From sequence record MN342150: a stretch of 64,000 bases of DNA; one strand, written 5' to 3'. This DNA is from Escherichia phage vB_EcoM_3HA11. How positions within the stretch are numbered: position 1 is the stretch's first letter; each line of letters starts with the position of its first letter. The position numbers were made by a program, and so were the translations under genes. Of the stretch, positions 2,825 to 56,506 are shown one piece after another. Under the pieces are notes generated by a model. The model worked only from the letters and a program-made list of their open reading frames with translations, did no database searches and was not told where the DNA came from.

Positions 2825-4018
2825 ATGAAAGCCAAGACCTTCAGTATTCCTATCGACAACATTGGTCGTGTCAAGGAACGTCTGGCCAAACTTGAAAGAA
2901 CGGCCAAGCGCCTGAATCTCGAGTTCCCTCTTGTCGAATACAGCGAACCATACAAAACCCAGCATCGCGATTCTATCACTGGTGAAAAATTCTATCGGTG
3001 GTGGCAGGATTGTACACTCACTGGTGAAGGCATCGACCGCCCCGTTTCCTACGGCGGGTGGAGCATTATTGGACAATTCAATCACCAATATCCAAAAGTC
3101 ATCTTGAATAAATTAGCAGATGACATCCACCCTAATTTCATTCAAAGATTCGAAGCCGAAAACGTGTCTTGGTGTGAGCATTGTAATAAATCTGTGCGTC
3201 GTCATAACACATATGTTGTTCGTAACGAACAATCCGGCGCTCAAATGTTGGTCGGCAGTAGCTGTATGCACCATTACGTTCCTCATCAGAAATCGCTTGA
3301 TGCCGTGATGTCTTATTATATGTCGATACATGAAATGTTCTCACCTGATGAAGATGACCCTGAAGGCATCTATCGAGTGAACGAACCTGATTACGTTGAC
3401 ACTGAAGGTTATTTGCGGAATTGCTTTCAGGTTCTGCTGTCTGGTATGAGTATGAAGAGCGATGATTTTGGTCGAGTTCTTGGTCATATTTCTAGCGGGA
3501 CTCGTCCGGAGAAAGGTTCTGACATTGAGATATTCTATAACAAGGCTGTTAAAGCCCGTGAAGATGCTCAATCAGAAATGTACCATATGATGCTTTTCAT
3601 CGCCGCGTTGTCTGAGAACAATGATTTCAACGTTCGCCTGAAACGTATGTGTGAACCTGGATATCACCTCGTTAAGGACTCCACGACAGTTCGTTGGGGA
3701 GCAGCAAAGTATTATGATTATATCCACACCCCCCGCCAAATGCGTTCTGTATCAAATTGGGTGGGGGAAGTCGGTGAAATGTTAGAAGTGCAAGTCAAAT
3801 TCGAAGCAAGGATTTTCCTGCATTCATCTGATTATGGTGACACGTATCTGTATACTTTCAAAACCAAAGAAGGCAATACCATTACATGGAAGACTTCTTA
3901 TATGGAAACCGAATTCCTGGAAGGTGATATGATCATTCGTGGTCGCGTCAAAGAATTGACCGAATTCAAAGATGTTAAACAAACTCAGGTAACAAGGGCA
4001 AAACTGAGGAAATTATGA
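2825..4018 (+). CDS. hypothetical protein with Cys/His cluster (397 aa)
   Basis: Long ORF with CEHCNKS...SSCMHHY putative metal-binding cluster; occupies the position where T4 has primase gp61 but no TOPRIM or gp61-like N-terminal zinc ribbon recognised. Confidence 0.5.
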   Translation: MKAKTFSIPIDNIGRVKERLAKLERTAKRLNLEFPLVEYSEPYKTQHRDSITGEKFYRWWQDCTLTGEGIDRPVSYGGWSIIGQFNHQYPKVILNKLADDIHPNFIQRFEAENVSWCEHCNKSVRRHNTYVVRNEQSGAQMLVGSSCMHHYVPHQKSLDAVMSYYMSIHEMFSPDEDDPEGIYRVNEPDYVDTEGYLRNCFQVLLSGMSMKSDDFGRVLGHISSGTRPEKGSDIEIFYNKAVKAREDAQSEMYHMMLFIAALSENNDFNVRLKRMCEPGYHLVKDSTTVRWGAAKYYDYIHTPRQMRSVSNWVGEVGEMLEVQVKFEARIFLHSSDYGDTYLYTFKTKEGNTITWKTSYMETEFLEGDMIIRGRVKELTEFKDVKQTQVTRAKLRKL

Positions 4019-4130
4019 TTCTTTTACAATTTGTTTTGAAAGCATTTGCATTCGGTCTTATCGCATGCGGAGTGATCACAGCTATGCTGTTAATCATAGC
4101 CCTGATCATCCCCTTTAAGAGGAAACGCTG

Positions 4131-4340
4131 ATGGAATGTTCATGCGGAGGGCAAGGCACAAGTGCATACTTGCCATTTAACACCGTCAAGGAAGCCGAAG
4201 ACGCTGGATATGCCGTGGATAAGGCTCCCTGTGTAATTGCCACCAAGGATTGTCCGTGCTGTAAGAGGCACTCTCAGAACGTTTGGTATGCCCCAGAAGC
4301 AAAGGGCAAAATTAATTTATTGAATATGATGAGGAAGTAA
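4131..4340 (+). CDS. small Cys-rich protein (69 aa)
   Basis: AGAGGA RBS; CSCGG...CPCC cysteine pattern. Confidence 0.4.
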   Translation: MECSCGGQGTSAYLPFNTVKEAEDAGYAVDKAPCVIATKDCPCCKRHSQNVWYAPEAKGKINLLNMMRK

Positions 4341-4341
4341 T

Positions 4342-4683
4342 ATGACCACACTCGTAGAAACATTATTCCCAGGATGCACCCTTGGGCGCGGTGGTAGCGA
4401 AGCCAACGGGCTGGCAATTGACGCCGAACCCCAGAACTGCGTTGTTATCGACAAATTCCATGACAATCATTATGCTCTGAATGATCGTCGCGATCATTAT
4501 TTGGTTTCTGTGGGAGAATCTTTGGTTCACCTTCGAATCTGTTCTGCTTTACCAGGATATGGGTATGACGCATTTGCTTATATCCATGATGTTTCCAACG
4601 GCGCGTTGGGGAAAGAATCCCTGATTGAAAAATTCAAGAGTTGGAAGGAGTCCTTCACCTCTGTCACACCACCTAAGAAATAA
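4342..4683 (+). CDS. hypothetical protein (113 aa)
   Basis: ATG 1 nt after previous stop, GAGGAAG RBS. Confidence 0.45.
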   Translation: MTTLVETLFPGCTLGRGGSEANGLAIDAEPQNCVVIDKFHDNHYALNDRRDHYLVSVGESLVHLRICSALPGYGYDAFAYIHDVSNGALGKESLIEKFKSWKESFTSVTPPKK

Positions 4684-51380: not shown

Positions 51381-51389
51381 ACCCCCTCC

Positions 51390-51623
51390 TTAAGAAACGA
51401 TAACCGTCGCATCAGAATTAATTGCCTTAACCCATCCCACCGTCGGCGGGGTTAAAACGACCATATTTCCTTGATATATGATATGCGCGTTGTTACCCGT
51501 TGGAGTGCTGGGGTTATCACACAGATACACAGAACCGTGAGTCACTTGAAGAGTTTTCAAAGATGTGCCGTCTGAGACTTGCGTCCATGTACTTGCGTTT
51601 GGTGTGATCTTAGCAGTTGCCAT
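51390..51623 (-). CDS. hypothetical beta-rich protein (77 aa), possibly structural
   Basis: TAAATAG late-promoter-like motif upstream; beta-type composition. Confidence 0.4.
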   Translation of the reverse strand: MATAKITPNASTWTQVSDGTSLKTLQVTHGSVYLCDNPSTPTGNNAHIIYQGNMVVLTPPTVGWVKAINSDATVIVS

Positions 51624-51648
51624 AATAGACCTCCTTTACAAGTCAGAT

Positions 51649-51658
51649 CTATTTATTA
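51649..51658 (-). promoter_or_regulatory. late-promoter-like motif TAATAAATAG
   Basis: Upstream of gene 51390..51623. Confidence 0.25.
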
Positions 51659-51660
51659 CA

Positions 51661-51691
51661 GACAAAAAGAAACCCGATCATCCTGATCGGG
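51661..51691 (-). terminator. terminator downstream of the tRNA array
   Basis: Hairpin CCCGATCA-tcc-TGATCGGG followed on the minus strand by TTTCTTTTTGTC. Confidence 0.4.
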
Positions 51692-51744
51692 CTATGTTAA
51701 ACCATCGTGGGGATGGAAAGACTACTCACAGCAATTTCTGATAA

Positions 51745-51835
51745 TGGGCGTTGGGAGAGTGCGTCGGGAATCGAACCCGAAACCGTCAGGACAATGAAAA
51801 GCTATTGCATTTCACCTTGCATATCCTCCGGCTTT
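51745..51835 (-). tRNA. tRNA-like element (T-arm present, cloverleaf not resolved; possible pseudo-tRNA)
   Basis: GGGTTCGATTCCC T-arm signature on the minus strand, but no complementary 5' acceptor strand found by eye. Confidence 0.2.
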
Positions 51836-51917
51836 CTTAACTTCCTTAACCCCAGATTGTTATGAAGTCGGCATGCACACCTTCTTCATCTTCAGGAAGT
51901 CACACTCATTATTCTGA

Positions 51918-52003
51918 TTGCTTCAACTGGATTCGAACCAGTGACCTCAGGCACCTTGTTCTCTCGAAACTTTCCTGCGCTCTACCACTCGAGCTATGAA
52001 GCA
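51918..52003 (-). tRNA. tRNA-like element, 86 nt, anticodon arm non-canonical
   Basis: Perfect acceptor stem (TGCTTCA/TGAAGCA), canonical D-arm and T-arm (ACTGG-TTCGAAT-CCAGT), but 35 nt between D- and T-arms with no standard 5-bp/7-nt anticodon stem-loop. Confidence 0.35.
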
Positions 52004-52006
52004 ATT

Positions 52007-52095
52007 TGGCGGAAGGTGAAGGATTCGAACCTTCGGGGGCTAAAAGCCCCACTCGATTAGCAGTCGAGTCCCTTAAACCTCTCGGGCAACCTTCC
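52007..52095 (-). tRNA. tRNA-Ser (anticodon GCU)
   Basis: Hand-folded cloverleaf: acceptor GGAAGGT/ACCTTCC, anticodon stem CTCGA/TCGAG with loop CTGCTAA, long variable arm, T-loop TTCGAAT, encoded CCA. Confidence 0.7.
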
Positions 52096-52099
52096 AATT

Positions 52100-52183
52100 T
52101 GGAGCGGGAGAACAGGATTCGAACCTGTCCAGTGATCGTCGCCGATGATCAGTCGGCTACTGGCCAACCCCTATGGCTCCCGC
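52100..52183 (-). tRNA. tRNA-like element (anticodon loop CTGATCA, possible GAU), non-canonical junctions
   Basis: Acceptor GCGGGAG/CTCCCGC and T-arm present, but one extra nucleotide between T-stem and acceptor, no clean D-stem, pyrimidine at position 37. Confidence 0.3.
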
Positions 52184-52544
52184 GAAATTAGGACGGGCTT
52201 CACACCCGATTGAGCATTTCATCTGCCCGTTTGAAGGGCGACCAGTGCCTTCTGGTCTGTACACAGCTGGCTGCAACGCTTACCGTGTTTGGTCTACCGC
52301 TACGTGCTGGGCCACGCTCGAGGACATCGGCCATCCTTCCTCAGCTAATCCACGCAGCGGCAGATTTGTATCAGAGTGTCCGGTGTAGCTTTCCGTGAGG
52401 TGCGCACTACTGTAGCCTCTACACTCTGAATTTGGTGGGCGTTACTATCGTCGTCTTCGGATTCCGTTCTGCTATTGGACAGAGGCTTGGAGCTTGTCGG
52501 TCGCATACTTCGTGCCTATTCACTTTCGTTCACACCCGTAATTC

Positions 52545-52619
52545 TGGCGGTGCCTCAAGGACTCGAACCTTGCTATCACGGATTAACAGTCCGCCGCTTC
52601 ACCATTTAGCTAAAGCACC
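52545..52619 (-). tRNA. tRNA-Asn (anticodon GUU)
   Basis: 75 nt; acceptor GGTGCTT/AGGCACC, anticodon stem GCGGA/TCCGT with loop CTGTTAA, T-arm CAAGG-TTCGAGT-CCTTG, encoded CCA. Confidence 0.65.
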
Positions 52620-52627
52620 TGAATATT

Positions 52628-52703
52628 TGGCATGCCCTCCAGGACTCGAACCTGGGTTGTACGGTTTTGGAGACCGACCTCATAGCCGCTAGATCAAGGG
52701 CAC
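52628..52703 (-). tRNA. tRNA-Trp (anticodon CCA), weak D-stem
   Basis: 76 nt; acceptor GTGCCCT/AGGGCAT, anticodon loop CTCCAAA, T-arm CCAGG-TTCGAGT-CCTGG, encoded CCA. Confidence 0.5.
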
Positions 52704-52717
52704 ACACCTTACAACGA

Positions 52718-52742
52718 ACTATACTGTATAAAGGTTATTGAA
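52718..52742 (-). promoter_or_regulatory. promoter-like motif TTCAATAA-N11-TATAGT (minus strand) upstream of tRNA-Trp
   Basis: The -10-like hexamer ends about 15 nt before the mature tRNA-Trp 5' end. Confidence 0.35.
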
Positions 52743-52771
52743 ACAAACCTTTATTTTATTCAACCATAATA

Positions 52772-52848
52772 TGGTGATCCTGGTTGGGTTTGAACCAACG
52801 ACCAATGAATTATGAGTTCACTGCTCTAACCGACTGAGCTACAGGACC
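52772..52848 (-). tRNA. tRNA-Met (anticodon CAU; initiator/elongator/Ile-lysidine not distinguished)
   Basis: 77 nt canonical cloverleaf: acceptor GGTCCTG/CAGGATC, D-arm GCTC-AGTCGGTTA-GAGC, anticodon stem GTGAA/TTCAT with loop CTCATAA, T-loop TTCAAAC, CCA. Confidence 0.75.
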
Positions 52849-53252
52849 TTTTGATTCTTCAAATTTCTCAACACGTGTGGGTTGGATTCTAACATCTTCT
52901 TCATGTTGTCCTCCTTACTTAACAATTGTAAATTCCACAGTGCGCAATTATATTTGTTCTCATCAATATGGTCTATTTCAAACCCTTCTGGAACTGGGCC
53001 ATTAAACGCCACCCAGACAAACCAGTGTAGATATTTCCTGAGATATACACCCAGATATTCCACTTTTATTTGCAAATAGCCAGTCCCGTTGTCCACTGCA
53101 GTCAAATACTTCTCTGGCAGTTTCTGTTCATATTCCCTAAACTGGTTCTTACGGAGTATAGTCAATTCAGGCTTCTTGACCTTTCCGTAGTTGCTGACAA
53201 ATACGCAGATTCCGAGTTTATCCAAACACAACTCTTTCCAAATCTCTTCCAT
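52839..53252 (-). CDS. HNH homing endonuclease
   Basis: 137 aa; HNH motif EIDHIDENKYNCALWNLQLL; adjacent to the tRNA array; 3' end overlaps tRNA-Met by about 10 nt. Confidence 0.6.
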   Translation of the reverse strand: MEEIWKELCLDKLGICVFVSNYGKVKKPELTILRKNQFREYEQKLPEKYLTAVDNGTGYLQIKVEYLGVYLRKYLHWFVWVAFNGPVPEGFEIDHIDENKYNCALWNLQLLSKEDNMKKMLESNPHVLRNLKNQKVL

Positions 53253-53259
53253 GCCAACT

Positions 53260-55600
53260 ATTCCCCGTTATTTGTGATGTGTCCAACCAAGGTCTCTCAA
53301 CCCTTTATCCCGTTTGTGCATGATCAGTTCATGCATGCCTGTTTGTGCGCCTCACGGCAACGCGCTTCTGTGGGTCTTTGGCTTGCACCGTAGCCTCACC
53401 ACAGGCGTTTATTTTTCCAGGGCTTTCCACTTGCAAGTCTTGACCATATAGGGATACGGGCTTGCAAGATCGGGTTGGACACAACTTTGATGGCTCTAGG
53501 ACTAAAGATCCCGCGTCACCCATAGACTTGGTTTATAAAATCTAGAGCCATCAAAGTTGCAACCAATGTCGCAACTCGCACTTCAGCGTCTTCGTCTCGC
53601 TTCAGCACTTGTCCTCTACGCTCGGACCAAACGAGGCTGGCCGACAGAAACATGACACCACTCATCACTAGAGCGAGGATGTGGTTGATAGCCACGATGT
53701 TACATCTCTGTCGCAGAGTGATCACACTTGTCAGGATGATCACTGTTTTGCGAACTTGAAAATACTGCGCCTGTCTCGGGTTTCCCCTTAGTTCGGCCTC
53801 TCATTGTTCGTCTAGTCAGGGAGCTACCCTTGATGACCAGCTTATTTTGAGATCTTCGCCAGCACCCACTAGTGTCTAGAATATGTAGGTGTCGAGGTCC
53901 GCAAGGCATTGCCCTATTTCATACAACGCTCTCTCAAGTACGCAAATCGAAGTTCTCTGGGCTTAACAGGTTCGACCCAACATGTTGTATATCGCCTAAC
54001 TTACTCATGGGACGGCCACTTCTGTGTACAGACCTTGAGGGTTAAAAGATATACCCAAAGAACTTCGATTTGCGTTGTGGGGCAAACCCCCACACGGCTA
54101 CTTCTTTGACAGGGATTGCTAGCCCTGGGGATTCCACTGTTTAAGGCTTTATCCCATAACGCCCGAGGCGCGTTTTAACTTATTGAAGCTTGCATAACTG
54201 CAAACTGATGCGCTGTGAGACACATCTTTGAGGGCACTCAGTGTACAACAGGCTCCGATATTTCATAGGGCATTACTGCCTCGGATTTAAGTTGCCTTTC
54301 TCCTGAAACTCCATACAGTCTCGCGTCTGACGCGGAATGCCCTCAAAGATATGGAGCCGTTTTAGGGAGTCGAACCCAAATGCTTGGCCAGCGCTGACCT
54401 TACATCCCATCTGACTTAGGCAACCCACCTCTGCTTACTCAGGAGCTTATCCCCTTTGGACAGTCAGATATAACGGCTTTGGGATTGGAGGAAGGACTCG
54501 AACCTTCTCATGTACGCTCCTGATTTCTCAGAAGTAGTCTGCTCCCATCGACCTATTAAGTACACGCTCCGCTCATTGTTCGGCGGGAGCTTATTAATCA
54601 CACCCTCCCGCCTATTGTTAGTGCGCCGAATTTTGTTATGAGGAATCGGAAGACCTCACTGGTGTATGGCTATTAAGCTACTGCCAGGAACGTGTTATCA
54701 TTAGCGATTATTTTTGTGGTCAGTTTCTAAAAACCCGCAAAGTCACGCACAACGAAAACGAAAACCTGTTTGAGTCCTAAACCTACCTGTCTTGGTCTCA
54801 CATCGCTATGAGTGGCCAGGACTCAAACAGCTTGCCGTTCAGTGAGTTAACTATACTTTGTAACCCGTTATTGATAAAACCTTTTATTTTTGTTGACGAG
54901 GGTGTGGAATCGAACCACACTTCTGAGCGCTGCCCCGTGTCACCAATGCACCACCTCACCATCGATTTGCCGGAACTTACGCATCCGGCCTCGTCCTGTC
55001 GGTGTTCTTCTGAATCCGGGAAGATCAGCAGGAACTATGAATCAAGTTAATTCAACCAACAGGAATCCTCGTGTTGCCCTTTGACGCAACATTATGAACC
55101 CTCTATGAAGACTCATAATGTTGTCGGCGTGATGGAGATTAGCGCCCCCGACCTCCCCTTATATGTTGGTGTCGACTTGCCAACAGGGTGCTCTCTGATT
55201 CTGAGCTAATCACGCTACAACAGGGAGTTTCGTTCTCCGACGGTCAAGTGCGTCCACTGACACCAGCGAGGTGGATATTATGCCTCTATTCACACAAGCC
55301 CCAGAGACTAGGGGTTCACTGTTTTCGGTTTCAAGCCTACTCACACTGTGCTGTTTCCCTCATGTTTGATACTTTACTGCAAGCCAGCCAATTTGAAAAA
55401 TCCTCTCCCCTTTGAATTACACTGCCCACAGCAGTGCGGACGAACCTTCATTCAAAACCGGATGCGCCGAAATGGGCGACTGTGTACCGGACTGATCAGG
55501 TCGACCCAGGAGAGAGCAGGTAATCCCGATCAGGAGGATGAGGAGTAACATCATGTAAAACATAGTGTTCCCTCCCTTCCATGCAACTAACTTTACCGCA
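53260..55600. other. ORF-poor structured region with tRNA-like fragments and long-range inverted repeats (candidate ncRNA, intron or pseudo-tRNA remnants)
   Basis: No credible ORF of 60 aa or more; T-arm-like motifs at about 54366, 54496 and 54910 with acceptor-like pairings at non-tRNA spacing; inverted repeats such as 53483-53500/53551-53568, 53943-53957/54060-54074 and 54225-54234/54341-54350. Confidence 0.4.
55414..55560 (-). CDS. small hydrophobic peptide (about 48 aa; below ORF-track cutoff)
   Basis: ATG preceded by strong GGAAGGGAGGGA RBS; MFYMMLLLILLIGITC signal-like N-terminus; coordinates hand-counted. Confidence 0.3.
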
Positions 55601-55613
55601 TTTATTTATTGAA
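55590..55613 (-). promoter_or_regulatory. promoter-like motif TTCAATAA-N10-TAAAGT (minus strand, weak -10)
   Basis: Upstream of the small peptide gene 55414..55560. Confidence 0.25.
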
Positions 55614-55620
55614 TAAAGCG

Positions 55621-56190
55621 TTATTTTATCAATTCTAACTTCACAACGCGGCGCAGAAGATAAACATATTCACCAGACGCTTCATGCGACATATAATGTG
55701 TAGAAGGGGTGGAATGGTTGTTCTGGGTTTCTTTTAACCCAACGCGTTCAGCCCAACCATTAATGGAGTTCCCGTAAAACCCGATAATCGCGCCGAAATA
55801 AATGCGCTGGCTCTCTGGTTCTAAAATATAGTTGACAGTGAAGCAGATGTCAGAACGAATAGATTCTAATTTTATACCAACCCGACCTTCAGAGAATTCG
55901 TTGCGAACATACAAATGACGAAAACGATCGCGTCGCGCTTGTGATGACTCTTCCAATTCTTGGCGAAGTGAGGATGTTGCATCGATATTAAATGAAAATG
56001 TCGGGTTTTGCAAATCGGTACGGGCTAACTCTAATGCTGATTCAACAACACGGCGGAAATTAATATTTTTGCCAGTCAGACGTTTCACTTCTTCTGTAAT
56101 TGTTCCGAAAGGAATTTTTGTAGCACGTTCCCCTTCGTATTTTGCTAACAAAGGGATGATGTGTTTCATTATTGCTGTATTAATGTGCAT
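55621..56190 (-). CDS. hypothetical protein (189 aa)
   Basis: Isolated minus-strand ORF between the ncRNA-like region and the plus-strand structural operon. Confidence 0.4.
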   Translation of the reverse strand: MHINTAIMKHIIPLLAKYEGERATKIPFGTITEEVKRLTGKNINFRRVVESALELARTDLQNPTFSFNIDATSSLRQELEESSQARRDRFRHLYVRNEFSEGRVGIKLESIRSDICFTVNYILEPESQRIYFGAIIGFYGNSINGWAERVGLKETQNNHSTPSTHYMSHEASGEYVYLLRRVVKLELIK

Positions 56191-56506
56191 TTCCTGAGCC
56201 TCGTCAAATTAATTAAATGTCCCCACTATTATATTGGGAATATGTTTATTGAATATAACCCCAAGAAAGGCCAATAAAATAATGACAGCGATTATTAATA
56301 GGTAAAAACTACTTTTCTACAACATCAAGAAACTGTATCTTAACGCGGTGCCCTTCGAGTTGTGAGTGTTAACGAACAACGAGAAGCAGCCTCCATGGCT
56401 GCGGAATGGGACTGCCTGTCAAGGCGGTGTTACGAGCGAGGGCGTCAGCCCCCTCGCGAGTATATTCGAATAAATTAACGCGCGAGAGCGTTTTGATTCC
56501 CTTTGG

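Follow-up and report, generated by a model that had tools for sequence, protein, structure and literature searches.

The HNH gene and its overlap with a tRNA gene

Why should the gene of a phage endonuclease end inside a tRNA gene, and is such a gene a mobile element that has entered the tRNA region and changed it? The question is raised by a stretch of 64,000 nt from Escherichia phage vB_EcoM_3HA11 (sequence record MN342150), in the following called the window. Here the initial annotation described an HNH endonuclease ORF of 137 aa reaching about 10 nt into the 5' end of a tRNA-Met gene, situated between the tRNA array and a structured region, and took it for a mobile-element insertion. The elements of the locus are listed below.

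52839..53252, minus strand: HNH_3 endonuclease ORF of 137 aa with an ATG start, consisting of a beta-rich NUMOD4-like N-terminal half and an HNH (His-Asn-Asn) core
52772..52848, minus strand: tRNA(CAU) with encoded CCA, reported by ARAGORN as tRNA-Met(cat) and also found by Rfam
52839..52848, minus strand: overlap of the ORF and tRNA(CAU), 10 nt corresponding to tRNA nucleotides 1-10
51916-52848, minus strand: tRNA array, of which tRNA(CAU) is the first gene
52628-52703, minus strand: tRNA-Trp (ARAGORN, Rfam), immediately downstream of tRNA(CAU) in the same orientation
52545-52619, minus strand: tRNA-Asn (ARAGORN, Rfam), immediately downstream of the tRNA(CAU)/tRNA-Trp pair in the same orientation
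51671..51693, minus strand: terminator-like hairpin and T-run after the last tRNA, from a consensus scan only
53253-55620: ORF-free stretch of about 2.4 kb upstream of the HNH gene

Both the ORF and its motif are borne out by the ORF coordinates and the family matches given below, EIDHIDENKYNCALWN corresponding to residues 92-107, and the overlap proved to be exactly 10 nt (52839-52848). The 3' end of the ORF reads AAG GTC CTG TAG, where the last G of AAG is the first nucleotide of tRNA(CAU) (GGTCCTGTAGCTCAG...) and the TAG is made up of the tRNA nucleotides U8-A9-G10; the ORF is without a stop codon of its own. Despite the overlap the tRNA is intact and uninterrupted, with an Rfam score of 71.1 bits compared to a gathering score of 29. 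The ORF is the sole one of at least 100 aa in the region 51381-55620, and it is far from a chance ORF because it matches Pfam HNH_3 over residues 73-117 (E 1.1e-15; 57.4 bits against a cut-off of 24.8) as well as PHROG 959 ‘HNH endonuclease’ (phrog_959) over its full length (residues 1-136; E 2.8e-29).

On the minus strand the order of elements is the ORF-free region of about 2.4 kb, the HNH gene, tRNA(CAU), tRNA-Trp, tRNA-Asn and a gap of 360 nt, after which follow an 84-nt tRNA-like gene, tRNA-Ser and a further tRNA, the last of these found by Rfam and missed by ARAGORN at default settings. The hairpin at 51671..51693 probably marks the end of a transcription unit holding the HNH gene and the tRNAs. 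Around the HNH gene lie tRNA genes, genes for a tail needle knob and a baseplate wedge, and the ORF-free region, and the placement of the gene between the array (51916-52848) and the region at 53253-55620 agrees with what had been proposed. The description of the region as T4-like is acceptable only in a loose sense; strictly, the locus belongs to a Kuttervirus (Ackermannviridae), since 4.9 kb around it are 99.8% identical to Salmonella phage vB_Sen_ST2 of that genus.

While ARAGORN and Rfam agree on the position of the overlapped tRNA, its identity as tRNA-Met is doubtful, the label being the ARAGORN default for a CAT anticodon. Among 5,400 E. coli genomes, the closest matches over its full length carry the annotation tRNA-Ile, with 83% identity, and its acceptor stem carries C4-G69 and C5-G68. 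It is therefore referred to here as tRNA(CAU), and judged by these features it is more likely a lysidine-modified, AUA-reading tRNA-Ile2 than a tRNA-Met.

The HNH protein resembles the homing endonuclease I-HmuI

To place the protein we compared it with its relatives at the level of both sequence and predicted structure. A word-indexed protein search returned 7 relatives, while an exhaustive HMMER search returned 5204. H95 and N107 are invariant in alignments of 15 close relatives and of 51 family members, N116 is invariant in the former and nearly so in the latter, and D94 is nearly invariant among the 15 close relatives. An AlphaFold2 model (pLDDT 95.1) places strands at residues 91-95 and 108-112, followed by a helix at 113-123. 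With this model I-HmuI (1u3e) was the top and only significant fold match in the PDB (probability 1.00, E 4.4e-5, TMq 0.62), while a search of the PDB with the sequence alone gave nothing usable (E 0.66), so that the fold search was needed. The suspected kinship with homing endonucleases is thus upheld by the Pfam HNH_3 match, the full-length PHROG match and I-HmuI as the best fold match to a confident model.

According to the model, the protein shares with I-HmuI of Bacillus phage SPO1 an N-terminal beta-sheet DNA-binding half, the beta-beta-alpha metal core of HNH enzymes and an active site of the His-Asn-Asn type. I-HmuI differs in being a homing nickase of 174 aa that is encoded in a group I intron and ends in a C-terminal helix-turn-helix, whereas the protein of the window is free-standing, 137 aa long, without a helix-turn-helix and 23% identical to I-HmuI. 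Since the helix-turn-helix is missing, the specificity of the 137-aa protein is uncertain.

A truncation at the tRNA junction, with loss of a C-terminal DNA-binding domain, was considered and ruled out, since many of the HMMER relatives are 131-140 aa long and align end to end with the HNH protein at 36-47% identity; about 135 aa is therefore the natural size of this subfamily and the ORF is not a shortened version of a larger enzyme. A conserved SNPHVLxNL motif extends to residue ~133. No HNH paralogues were found in the window by tblastn.

Presence and absence of the gene at one fixed site

HNH gene DNA was found in 29 phage records, compared with about 323 that share the locus, a minority of about 9%, and tblastn returned the same 29 records with the next identities below 50%. 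The nucleotide identity is 99.8-100% in 14 of these records (allele 1) and 82-85% in the other 15 (allele 2 together with the alleles of Klebsiella phages); all 29 copies are full length. The gene is absent from the type phage Vi01 and from about 90% of the related phages. In every HNH-positive genome examined it occupies this one site and overlaps the tRNA by 10 nt, as was seen for ST2, SeF6a, PMBT18 and Guerrero (Kuttervirus, allele 1), for SS9, CBA120 and Mutine (Kuttervirus, allele 2), for KpS110 and P01 (Taipeivirus), and for the metagenomic contig L018. Several copies have been named before: CBA120 orf221 and its homologues in Marshall, Maynard, Mutine, SS9 and KpS110 are copies of this gene, identically placed and with an identical overlap. 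At the protein level they are 100% (allele 1) or 86-89% (allele 2) identical, and they are annotated as ‘HNH homing endonuclease’ by similarity only. In the records of UTK0005, PMBT18, P01 and STP-4 the gene was left unannotated, and it appears that some annotation pipelines drop it because it overlaps a tRNA.

HNH-negative relatives carry unrelated fillers of 7-226 bp between the same two flanks:

KE31: 7 nt
Se-G: 120 nt
SM5 and pertopsoe: about 200 nt
ECML-4/Vi01: 226 nt

Of these fillers, 201 records have the Vi01 type and 62 the PM10/SM5 type. The filler of the 201 records contains a conserved structured element of about 111 nt which is absent from the window. In comparison with HNH-negative relatives, homology stops exactly at the 5' end of the tRNA and restarts 5-26 nt upstream of the ATG, and three independent pairs of HNH-positive and HNH-negative genomes place the edges of the cassette at tRNA +1 and at this upstream position; SS9 and ECML-4, for instance, keep an identity of 99.5% that breaks off only 5 nt short of the ATG. 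In the window the upstream edge is made up of two elements.

53253..53277, minus strand: 5' edge of the cassette, containing the Shine-Dalgarno-like sequence AACGGGGAA 9 nt before the ATG and shared with the SM5-type filler of HNH-less phages
53278..53340, minus strand: conserved ‘anchor’, reading TGTGTCCAACCAAGG... on the plus strand, where homology with HNH-less relatives resumes and the ORF-free region starts

As judged from these junctions, little more than a Shine-Dalgarno sequence and the ORF is mobile, approximately 410-430 bp in all. The upstream junctions lie in two different fillers and not at one shared point, which fits a recombinational replacement and is no proof of homing. Taken with the homology of the protein, the presence of the gene in 29 of approximately 320 records and the precise empty sites of the others support the view of the gene as a mobile-element insertion.

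Selection on the HNH gene and exchange of the tRNA block

Between the diverged HNH alleles dS ranges from 0.9 to above 2, i.e. it is saturated, while dN/dS is 0.02-0.09; by these estimates the alleles are old, functionally constrained lineages and not decaying copies. It is clear that the locus holds an intact and strongly constrained gene for an I-HmuI-like nuclease, which occurs sporadically at one fixed site in two phage genera.

Comparison of sequence identities along the locus points to an exchanged block:

51400..53500: block of about 2.1 kb comprising the tRNA array, the HNH gene and about 250 nt upstream

Against SeF6a or PMBT18 the window is approximately 100% identical over 51400-53500 and 88-95% identical elsewhere. 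The opposite pattern is seen against SS9, where both flanks are 99-100% identical and the stretch 52200-53500, which holds the HNH gene, tRNA(CAU) and their neighbours, is only 77-95% identical. Allele 1 is 99.8-100% identical in 14 records whose backgrounds differ by 2-12%. Both identity patterns are consistent with gene conversion around a homing endonuclease gene, but ordinary recombination could give the same. They are likewise in line with the broader observation that boundaries of genetic exchange between phages are marked by nuclease genes (PMC10448857).

The initial annotation further suggested that the insertion may have reshaped the adjacent region. This holds in a modest sense, as the cassette takes the place of a resident filler of about 200 bp and travels within the 2.1-kb block, but it does not hold for the content of the array. 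KE31 has a tRNA block 99.8% identical to that of the window and no HNH gene; upstream of the slot the identity is 78%, and the breakpoint falls exactly at the cassette. The idea that the HNH gene sets the tRNA content was ruled out, since KE31 has the same tRNA set without the gene and SS9 and ECML-4 share theirs. The same pairs of phages were inspected for immunity polymorphisms, and none were found in tRNA(CAU) or the anchor between HNH-positive and HNH-negative phages (KE31 compared with the window; ECML-4 and SS9), which can be identical there. I-HmuI also cuts its own allele, and for this reason the missing polymorphism is not decisive.

The deep divergence of the alleles together with the strong purifying selection could mean that the nuclease benefits the phage and is not purely selfish. 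Taken further, this becomes the view that a domesticated nuclease excludes co-infecting relatives, degrades host or competitor DNA, or boosts recombination and amplification of the tRNA cluster, and does not merely home for its own sake. The dN/dS of 0.02-0.09 at saturated dS does indicate a stronger and older constraint than a cycle of gain, decay and loss predicts, the position of the gene is unchanged between the two genera, and a 2026 paper describes SegB as promoting the amplification of anti-defence tRNA loci (PMC13096335). However, the gene is dispensable, because about 90% of the related phages, including Vi01, do without it, and the proposed behaviours are largely those of homing endonucleases anyway, making this proposal a refinement more than an alternative. 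As a separate explanation we consider it unlikely.

The converse view, that the gene is an inactive relic of a past insertion, decaying and carried as a passive passenger of the tRNA block, could draw on KE31, where the same block exists without the gene, and on the metagenomic copy L017, which has lost both the conserved C-terminal motif and the tRNA neighbour. It is very hard to reconcile with 29 full-length genomic copies out of 29, with conserved catalytic residues, a dN/dS of about 0.05 and a highly confident AlphaFold model, or with an allele 1 that stays at 99.8-100% identity in 14 records with backgrounds 2-12% apart, and we regard it as highly improbable. Hardly any credence is left for an intron-encoded enzyme of a group I intron in the tRNA region, despite the intron origin of I-HmuI as the closest structure, or for a terminase-associated HNH protein of cos-type phages (HK97 gp74 type), since no intron family (Intron_gpI, gpII) matched in 51400-56300 at E up to 1, tRNA(CAU) is contiguous at 71 bits, the cassette holds only a Shine-Dalgarno sequence and the ORF, and the tRNA, tail needle knob and baseplate wedge neighbours are not terminase or portal genes.

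Association of the HNH family with tRNA(CAU) genes

For nine relatives with known context (36-88% identity) the surroundings of the gene were inspected; eight have a tRNA gene no more than 400 nt away, and for six the neighbour is a tRNA(CAU) gene. The individual loci were as follows.

L018 (P0003): ORF ends 10 nt inside tRNA(CAU)
L077 (P0014; 39% identical): ORF runs 24 nt into tRNA(CAU), in a different reading frame, with the D-loop TAG as stop
L016 (P0011): starts 15 nt after tRNA(CAU), on a contig similar to a CBB-like jumbo phage
L080 (P0010): begins about 14 nt downstream of tRNA(CAU)
L019 (P0018): starts 130 nt after tRNA(CAU)
L076 (P0013) and L078 (P0019): downstream of tRNA-Arg
L017 (P0004): altered C-terminus with the conserved motif lost; tRNA neighbour absent
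L079 (P0023): no tRNA within the 1-kb contig

In L018 the protein ends in HSAP instead of QKVL because the acceptor stem of its tRNA differs, and in L077 the conserved C-terminal motif ends exactly at tRNA +1. The tRNA(CAU) gene is probably a conserved landmark of this HNH lineage and, to judge from these contexts, its probable target as well.

A tmRNA-like RNA upstream of the HNH gene

The more surprising item of the locus is a different one, namely an unannotated tmRNA-like RNA approximately 1.4 kb upstream of the HNH gene.

54480..54947, minus strand: tmRNA-like RNA, found by ARAGORN at a relaxed threshold, with the tag ANDNTFLAVA followed by two stops

Rfam tmRNA matches at the same spot are sub-threshold. 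The ten-codon tag frame is kept across relatives with synonymous and conservative changes, the tags being:

ANDNTFLAVA: the window, ECML-4, SS9, SM5, May, P01 and SeF6a
ANDDVVLMAA: KpS110 and DS8
ANDSEVLMAA: PMBT18 and Guerrero
ANDNAFLMAA: metagenomic contig L018
ANDNVFLAVA: wV8
ANEEMYLAVA: pIS4-A and the E. coli prophage L081

Across the relatives, pairing amounts to 97.5-100% in a stop-codon helix and a pseudoknot downstream of it, with compensatory changes, and the unit carries its own sigma-70-like promoter. It was found in 657 phage records (Ackermannviridae, Felixounavirus, Deseoctovirus and Roufvirus siphoviruses) and in 144 E. coli genomes, where the one copy examined is flanked by the Q and holin genes of a lambdoid prophage; in these records it is almost never annotated. 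No similarity to the host ssrA gene was detectable by blastn, and no canonical tRNA-like domain attached to the RNA was identified; in wV8 the RNA is directly followed by a tRNA-like gene that has G3:U70 and A73. Scanning IMG/VR with ATAAATGCAAACGA-N11-CTG gave 53 loci, in 34 of which ARAGORN called a permuted tmRNA at the match, while enterophage-type downstream motifs were present in none of the 53. A literature search found no report of such a phage tmRNA-like RNA.

Proposed homing at the tRNA boundary

As precedents from the tRNA region of T4 the initial annotation had named segB and mobE. The second of these has to be dropped, since mobE lies in the nrd region and not in the T4 tRNA region, where our gene differs from it; phage T5, on the other hand, has free-standing HNH endonucleases in its tRNA region (F-TflI, F-TflII and F-TflIV) that mobilise themselves and flanking DNA. 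The first precedent stands: T4 segB is a free-standing homing endonuclease gene in a tRNA cluster, and in mixed infections it brings about the preferential transmission of the T4 tRNA region (PMC2330249). The identical block of about 2.1 kb at the HNH locus fits a SegB-like behaviour, although SegB is a GIY-YIG and not an HNH enzyme, is unrelated in sequence, has its own stop codon and is encoded between tRNA genes. Free-standing HNH endonucleases of the T4 Mob type, such as MobE, likewise mobilise themselves and flanking DNA (PMC2790892), and homing endonucleases are common in Ackermannviridae according to a review (PMC8472413).

Collectively, these data make it probable that the HNH gene, which lies exactly at the 5' boundary of tRNA(CAU), the first gene of an Ackermannviridae tRNA array, encodes a free-standing homing endonuclease. 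The best reading, by analogy with T4 SegB, is that it is active or has been so recently. Besides SegB, the homing of I-HmuI serves as a paradigm for how such a gene would spread. In a mixed infection the enzyme would nick or cut the DNA of a relative lacking the gene, either within tRNA(CAU) or next to it, and recombinational repair from the HNH-positive genome would copy the gene in and co-convert its flanks, including the tRNA cluster. Cleavage activity, the target site and the choice between nick and cut are here presumed from the SegB and I-HmuI paradigms (PMC2330249, PMC2988022).

No conserved promoter precedes the HNH ORF, and expression by read-through is therefore probable; the gene would then be transcribed as the 5' leader of the tRNA precursor, with translation ending at U8-A9-G10 of the tRNA. 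Two sequences resembling promoters, at 53285..53257 and 52975..52947, differ from allele to allele. The latter, a 10/12 match inside the ORF, was considered as a promoter driving the tRNAs and was ruled out, since its -10 element is not kept in KpS110 or L018 and it overlaps conserved codons. From the established biology of RNase P, release of the tRNA would cut the HNH message short by its stop codon and the three sense codons before it. Stops supplied by a tRNA occur both as U8-A9-G10 in the window and as a D-loop UAG in the 39%-identical relative. One may go further and suppose that the whole lineage has the 5' edge of phage tRNA(CAU) genes as its precise homing site and is deliberately stop-less, terminating at invariant tRNA nucleotides; this we find rather unlikely. 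If true, release of the tRNA by RNase P would strip the stop codon from the endonuclease mRNA, and the dosage of the endonuclease would be coupled to tRNA maturation and to the rescue of stalled ribosomes. The tmRNA-like RNA about 1.4 kb upstream may have no part in this.

Significance of the locus

A literature search found no paper characterising the HNH gene, its slot or its tRNA overlap. The arrangement with the stop codon inside the tRNA and the association with tRNA(CAU) genes are modestly new; otherwise the case is an ordinary one, a further free-standing homing endonuclease among phage tRNA genes, and close relatives already carry that label. For annotation, it flags the adjacent ‘tRNA-Met’ as a probable AUA-reading tRNA-Ile, and the stop codon within a tRNA is an unusual detail that can be tested. 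For the biology of these phages, the locus brings out a small HNH family consistently tied to tRNA(CAU) genes in unrelated phages, and with at least four alternative states of the slot and at least three ancient alleles in two genera it offers a clean natural system for intronless homing in Kutterviruses of therapeutic and biocontrol use.

The HNH slot and its alternative contents

In the window the HNH cassette displaces a conserved element of approximately 111 nt, which is absent from it and which in 201 Ackermannviridae records lies directly upstream of tRNA(CAU). The copy in Dickeya phage PP35 is still 94.5% identical, and the folding of the element exceeds that of shuffled controls (z -3.4). 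Klebsiella phages May and P01 have it downstream of the tRNA instead. A second alternative content of the slot, the PM10/SM5-type filler, is found in 62 records. It is ordered as a conserved 14-aa micro-ORF (MTWRQRGYKTVELI), a G+C-rich hairpin and a promoter-like TTGTGT-17-TATATG that directly abuts the tRNA, and its micro-ORF has a Shine-Dalgarno sequence in common with the HNH gene.

Slot contents in relatives
ECML-4/Vi01 locus (L002), 2580-2700: conserved ~111-nt element
SM5 locus (L004), 3477-3675: PM10/SM5-type filler, also in the May locus (L008)

As a separate matter, GenBank OR844942.1 (“Enterococcus phage Efm 3-10”) is 98.6% identical to the Kuttervirus region of the window, and this record is probably mislabelled or contaminated.

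The tRNA array

An ORF-free gap inside the array is 90-100% conserved among the relatives, and the tRNA-Tyr gene of ECML-4 is missing from the window at ~52290 (52288-52293).

Features of the array in the window
52184-52544: ORF-free gap of 360 nt
51916-52004, minus strand: tRNA with an Rfam score of 48.7 bits
52100-52183, minus strand: 84-nt “tRNA-Ile(gat)” call

The GenBank labels of these two genes differ between records (Leu, Pro or OTHER). The first (Rfam 48.7 bits) was overlooked by default ARAGORN, and for the second, the 84-nt “tRNA-Ile(gat)” call, Rfam gives just a weak tRNA-Sec match.

A tmRNA-like RNA in the ORF-free region

The region upstream of the HNH gene contains an unannotated tmRNA-like RNA with its own promoter-like site, consisting of the mRNA-like domain only; a canonical tRNA-like domain was sought and none was found.

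Features of the ORF-free region in the window
54560-54880, minus strand: tmRNA-like RNA
54705 to 54670, minus strand: its tag codons
54877 to 54850, minus strand: its promoter-like site
54341-54466, minus strand: tRNA-like module
54480-54550, minus strand: tRNA-like module
54895-54965, minus strand: tRNA-like module
53465-53580: long, near-perfect hairpin

The tag frame of 10 codons is conserved, with synonymous codon changes, and compensatory changes occur in the stop-codon helix and in the pseudoknot downstream. The tag reads ANDNTFLAVA, followed by two stops, in the window, and ANDDVVLMAA, ANDSEVLMAA, ANDNAFLMAA, ANDNVFLAVA or ANEEMYLAVA in other copies. The RNA is present in 657 phage records, which belong to several families that are not related to one another. 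It also occurs in 144 E. coli genomes, and the single E. coli copy that was inspected is located in a lambdoid prophage. A literature search found no report of such an RNA.

The tRNA-like modules, detected by ARAGORN at relaxed thresholds only, are scattered through the region and consist of a T-arm, an acceptor and CCA, while the anticodon arm is not convincing. Their presence varies between relatives, and the vB_Sen_ST2 record labels one of them “tRNA-Ala”.

The hairpin has weak miRNA-precursor-like Rfam matches on both strands and lies at ~53500, where both recombination blocks have their upstream boundary (the ~100%-identical block of SeF6a and PMBT18, and the stretch diverged from SS9).

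Further HNH insertions

Se-G, PMBT18 and Phi_10 (H204) carry other, unrelated HNH homing endonuclease genes, inserted just upstream of the tmRNA-like core.

Insertions in relatives
Se-G locus (L003), 3945-4415: HNH gene, corresponding to ~54760 in the window
PMBT18 locus (L012), 1564-2079: HNH gene, corresponding to ~54760 in the window

In PMBT18 the insertion stands in place of the promoter and the long hairpin of the core. Such HNH homing endonuclease genes have a hotspot in the ORF-free region.
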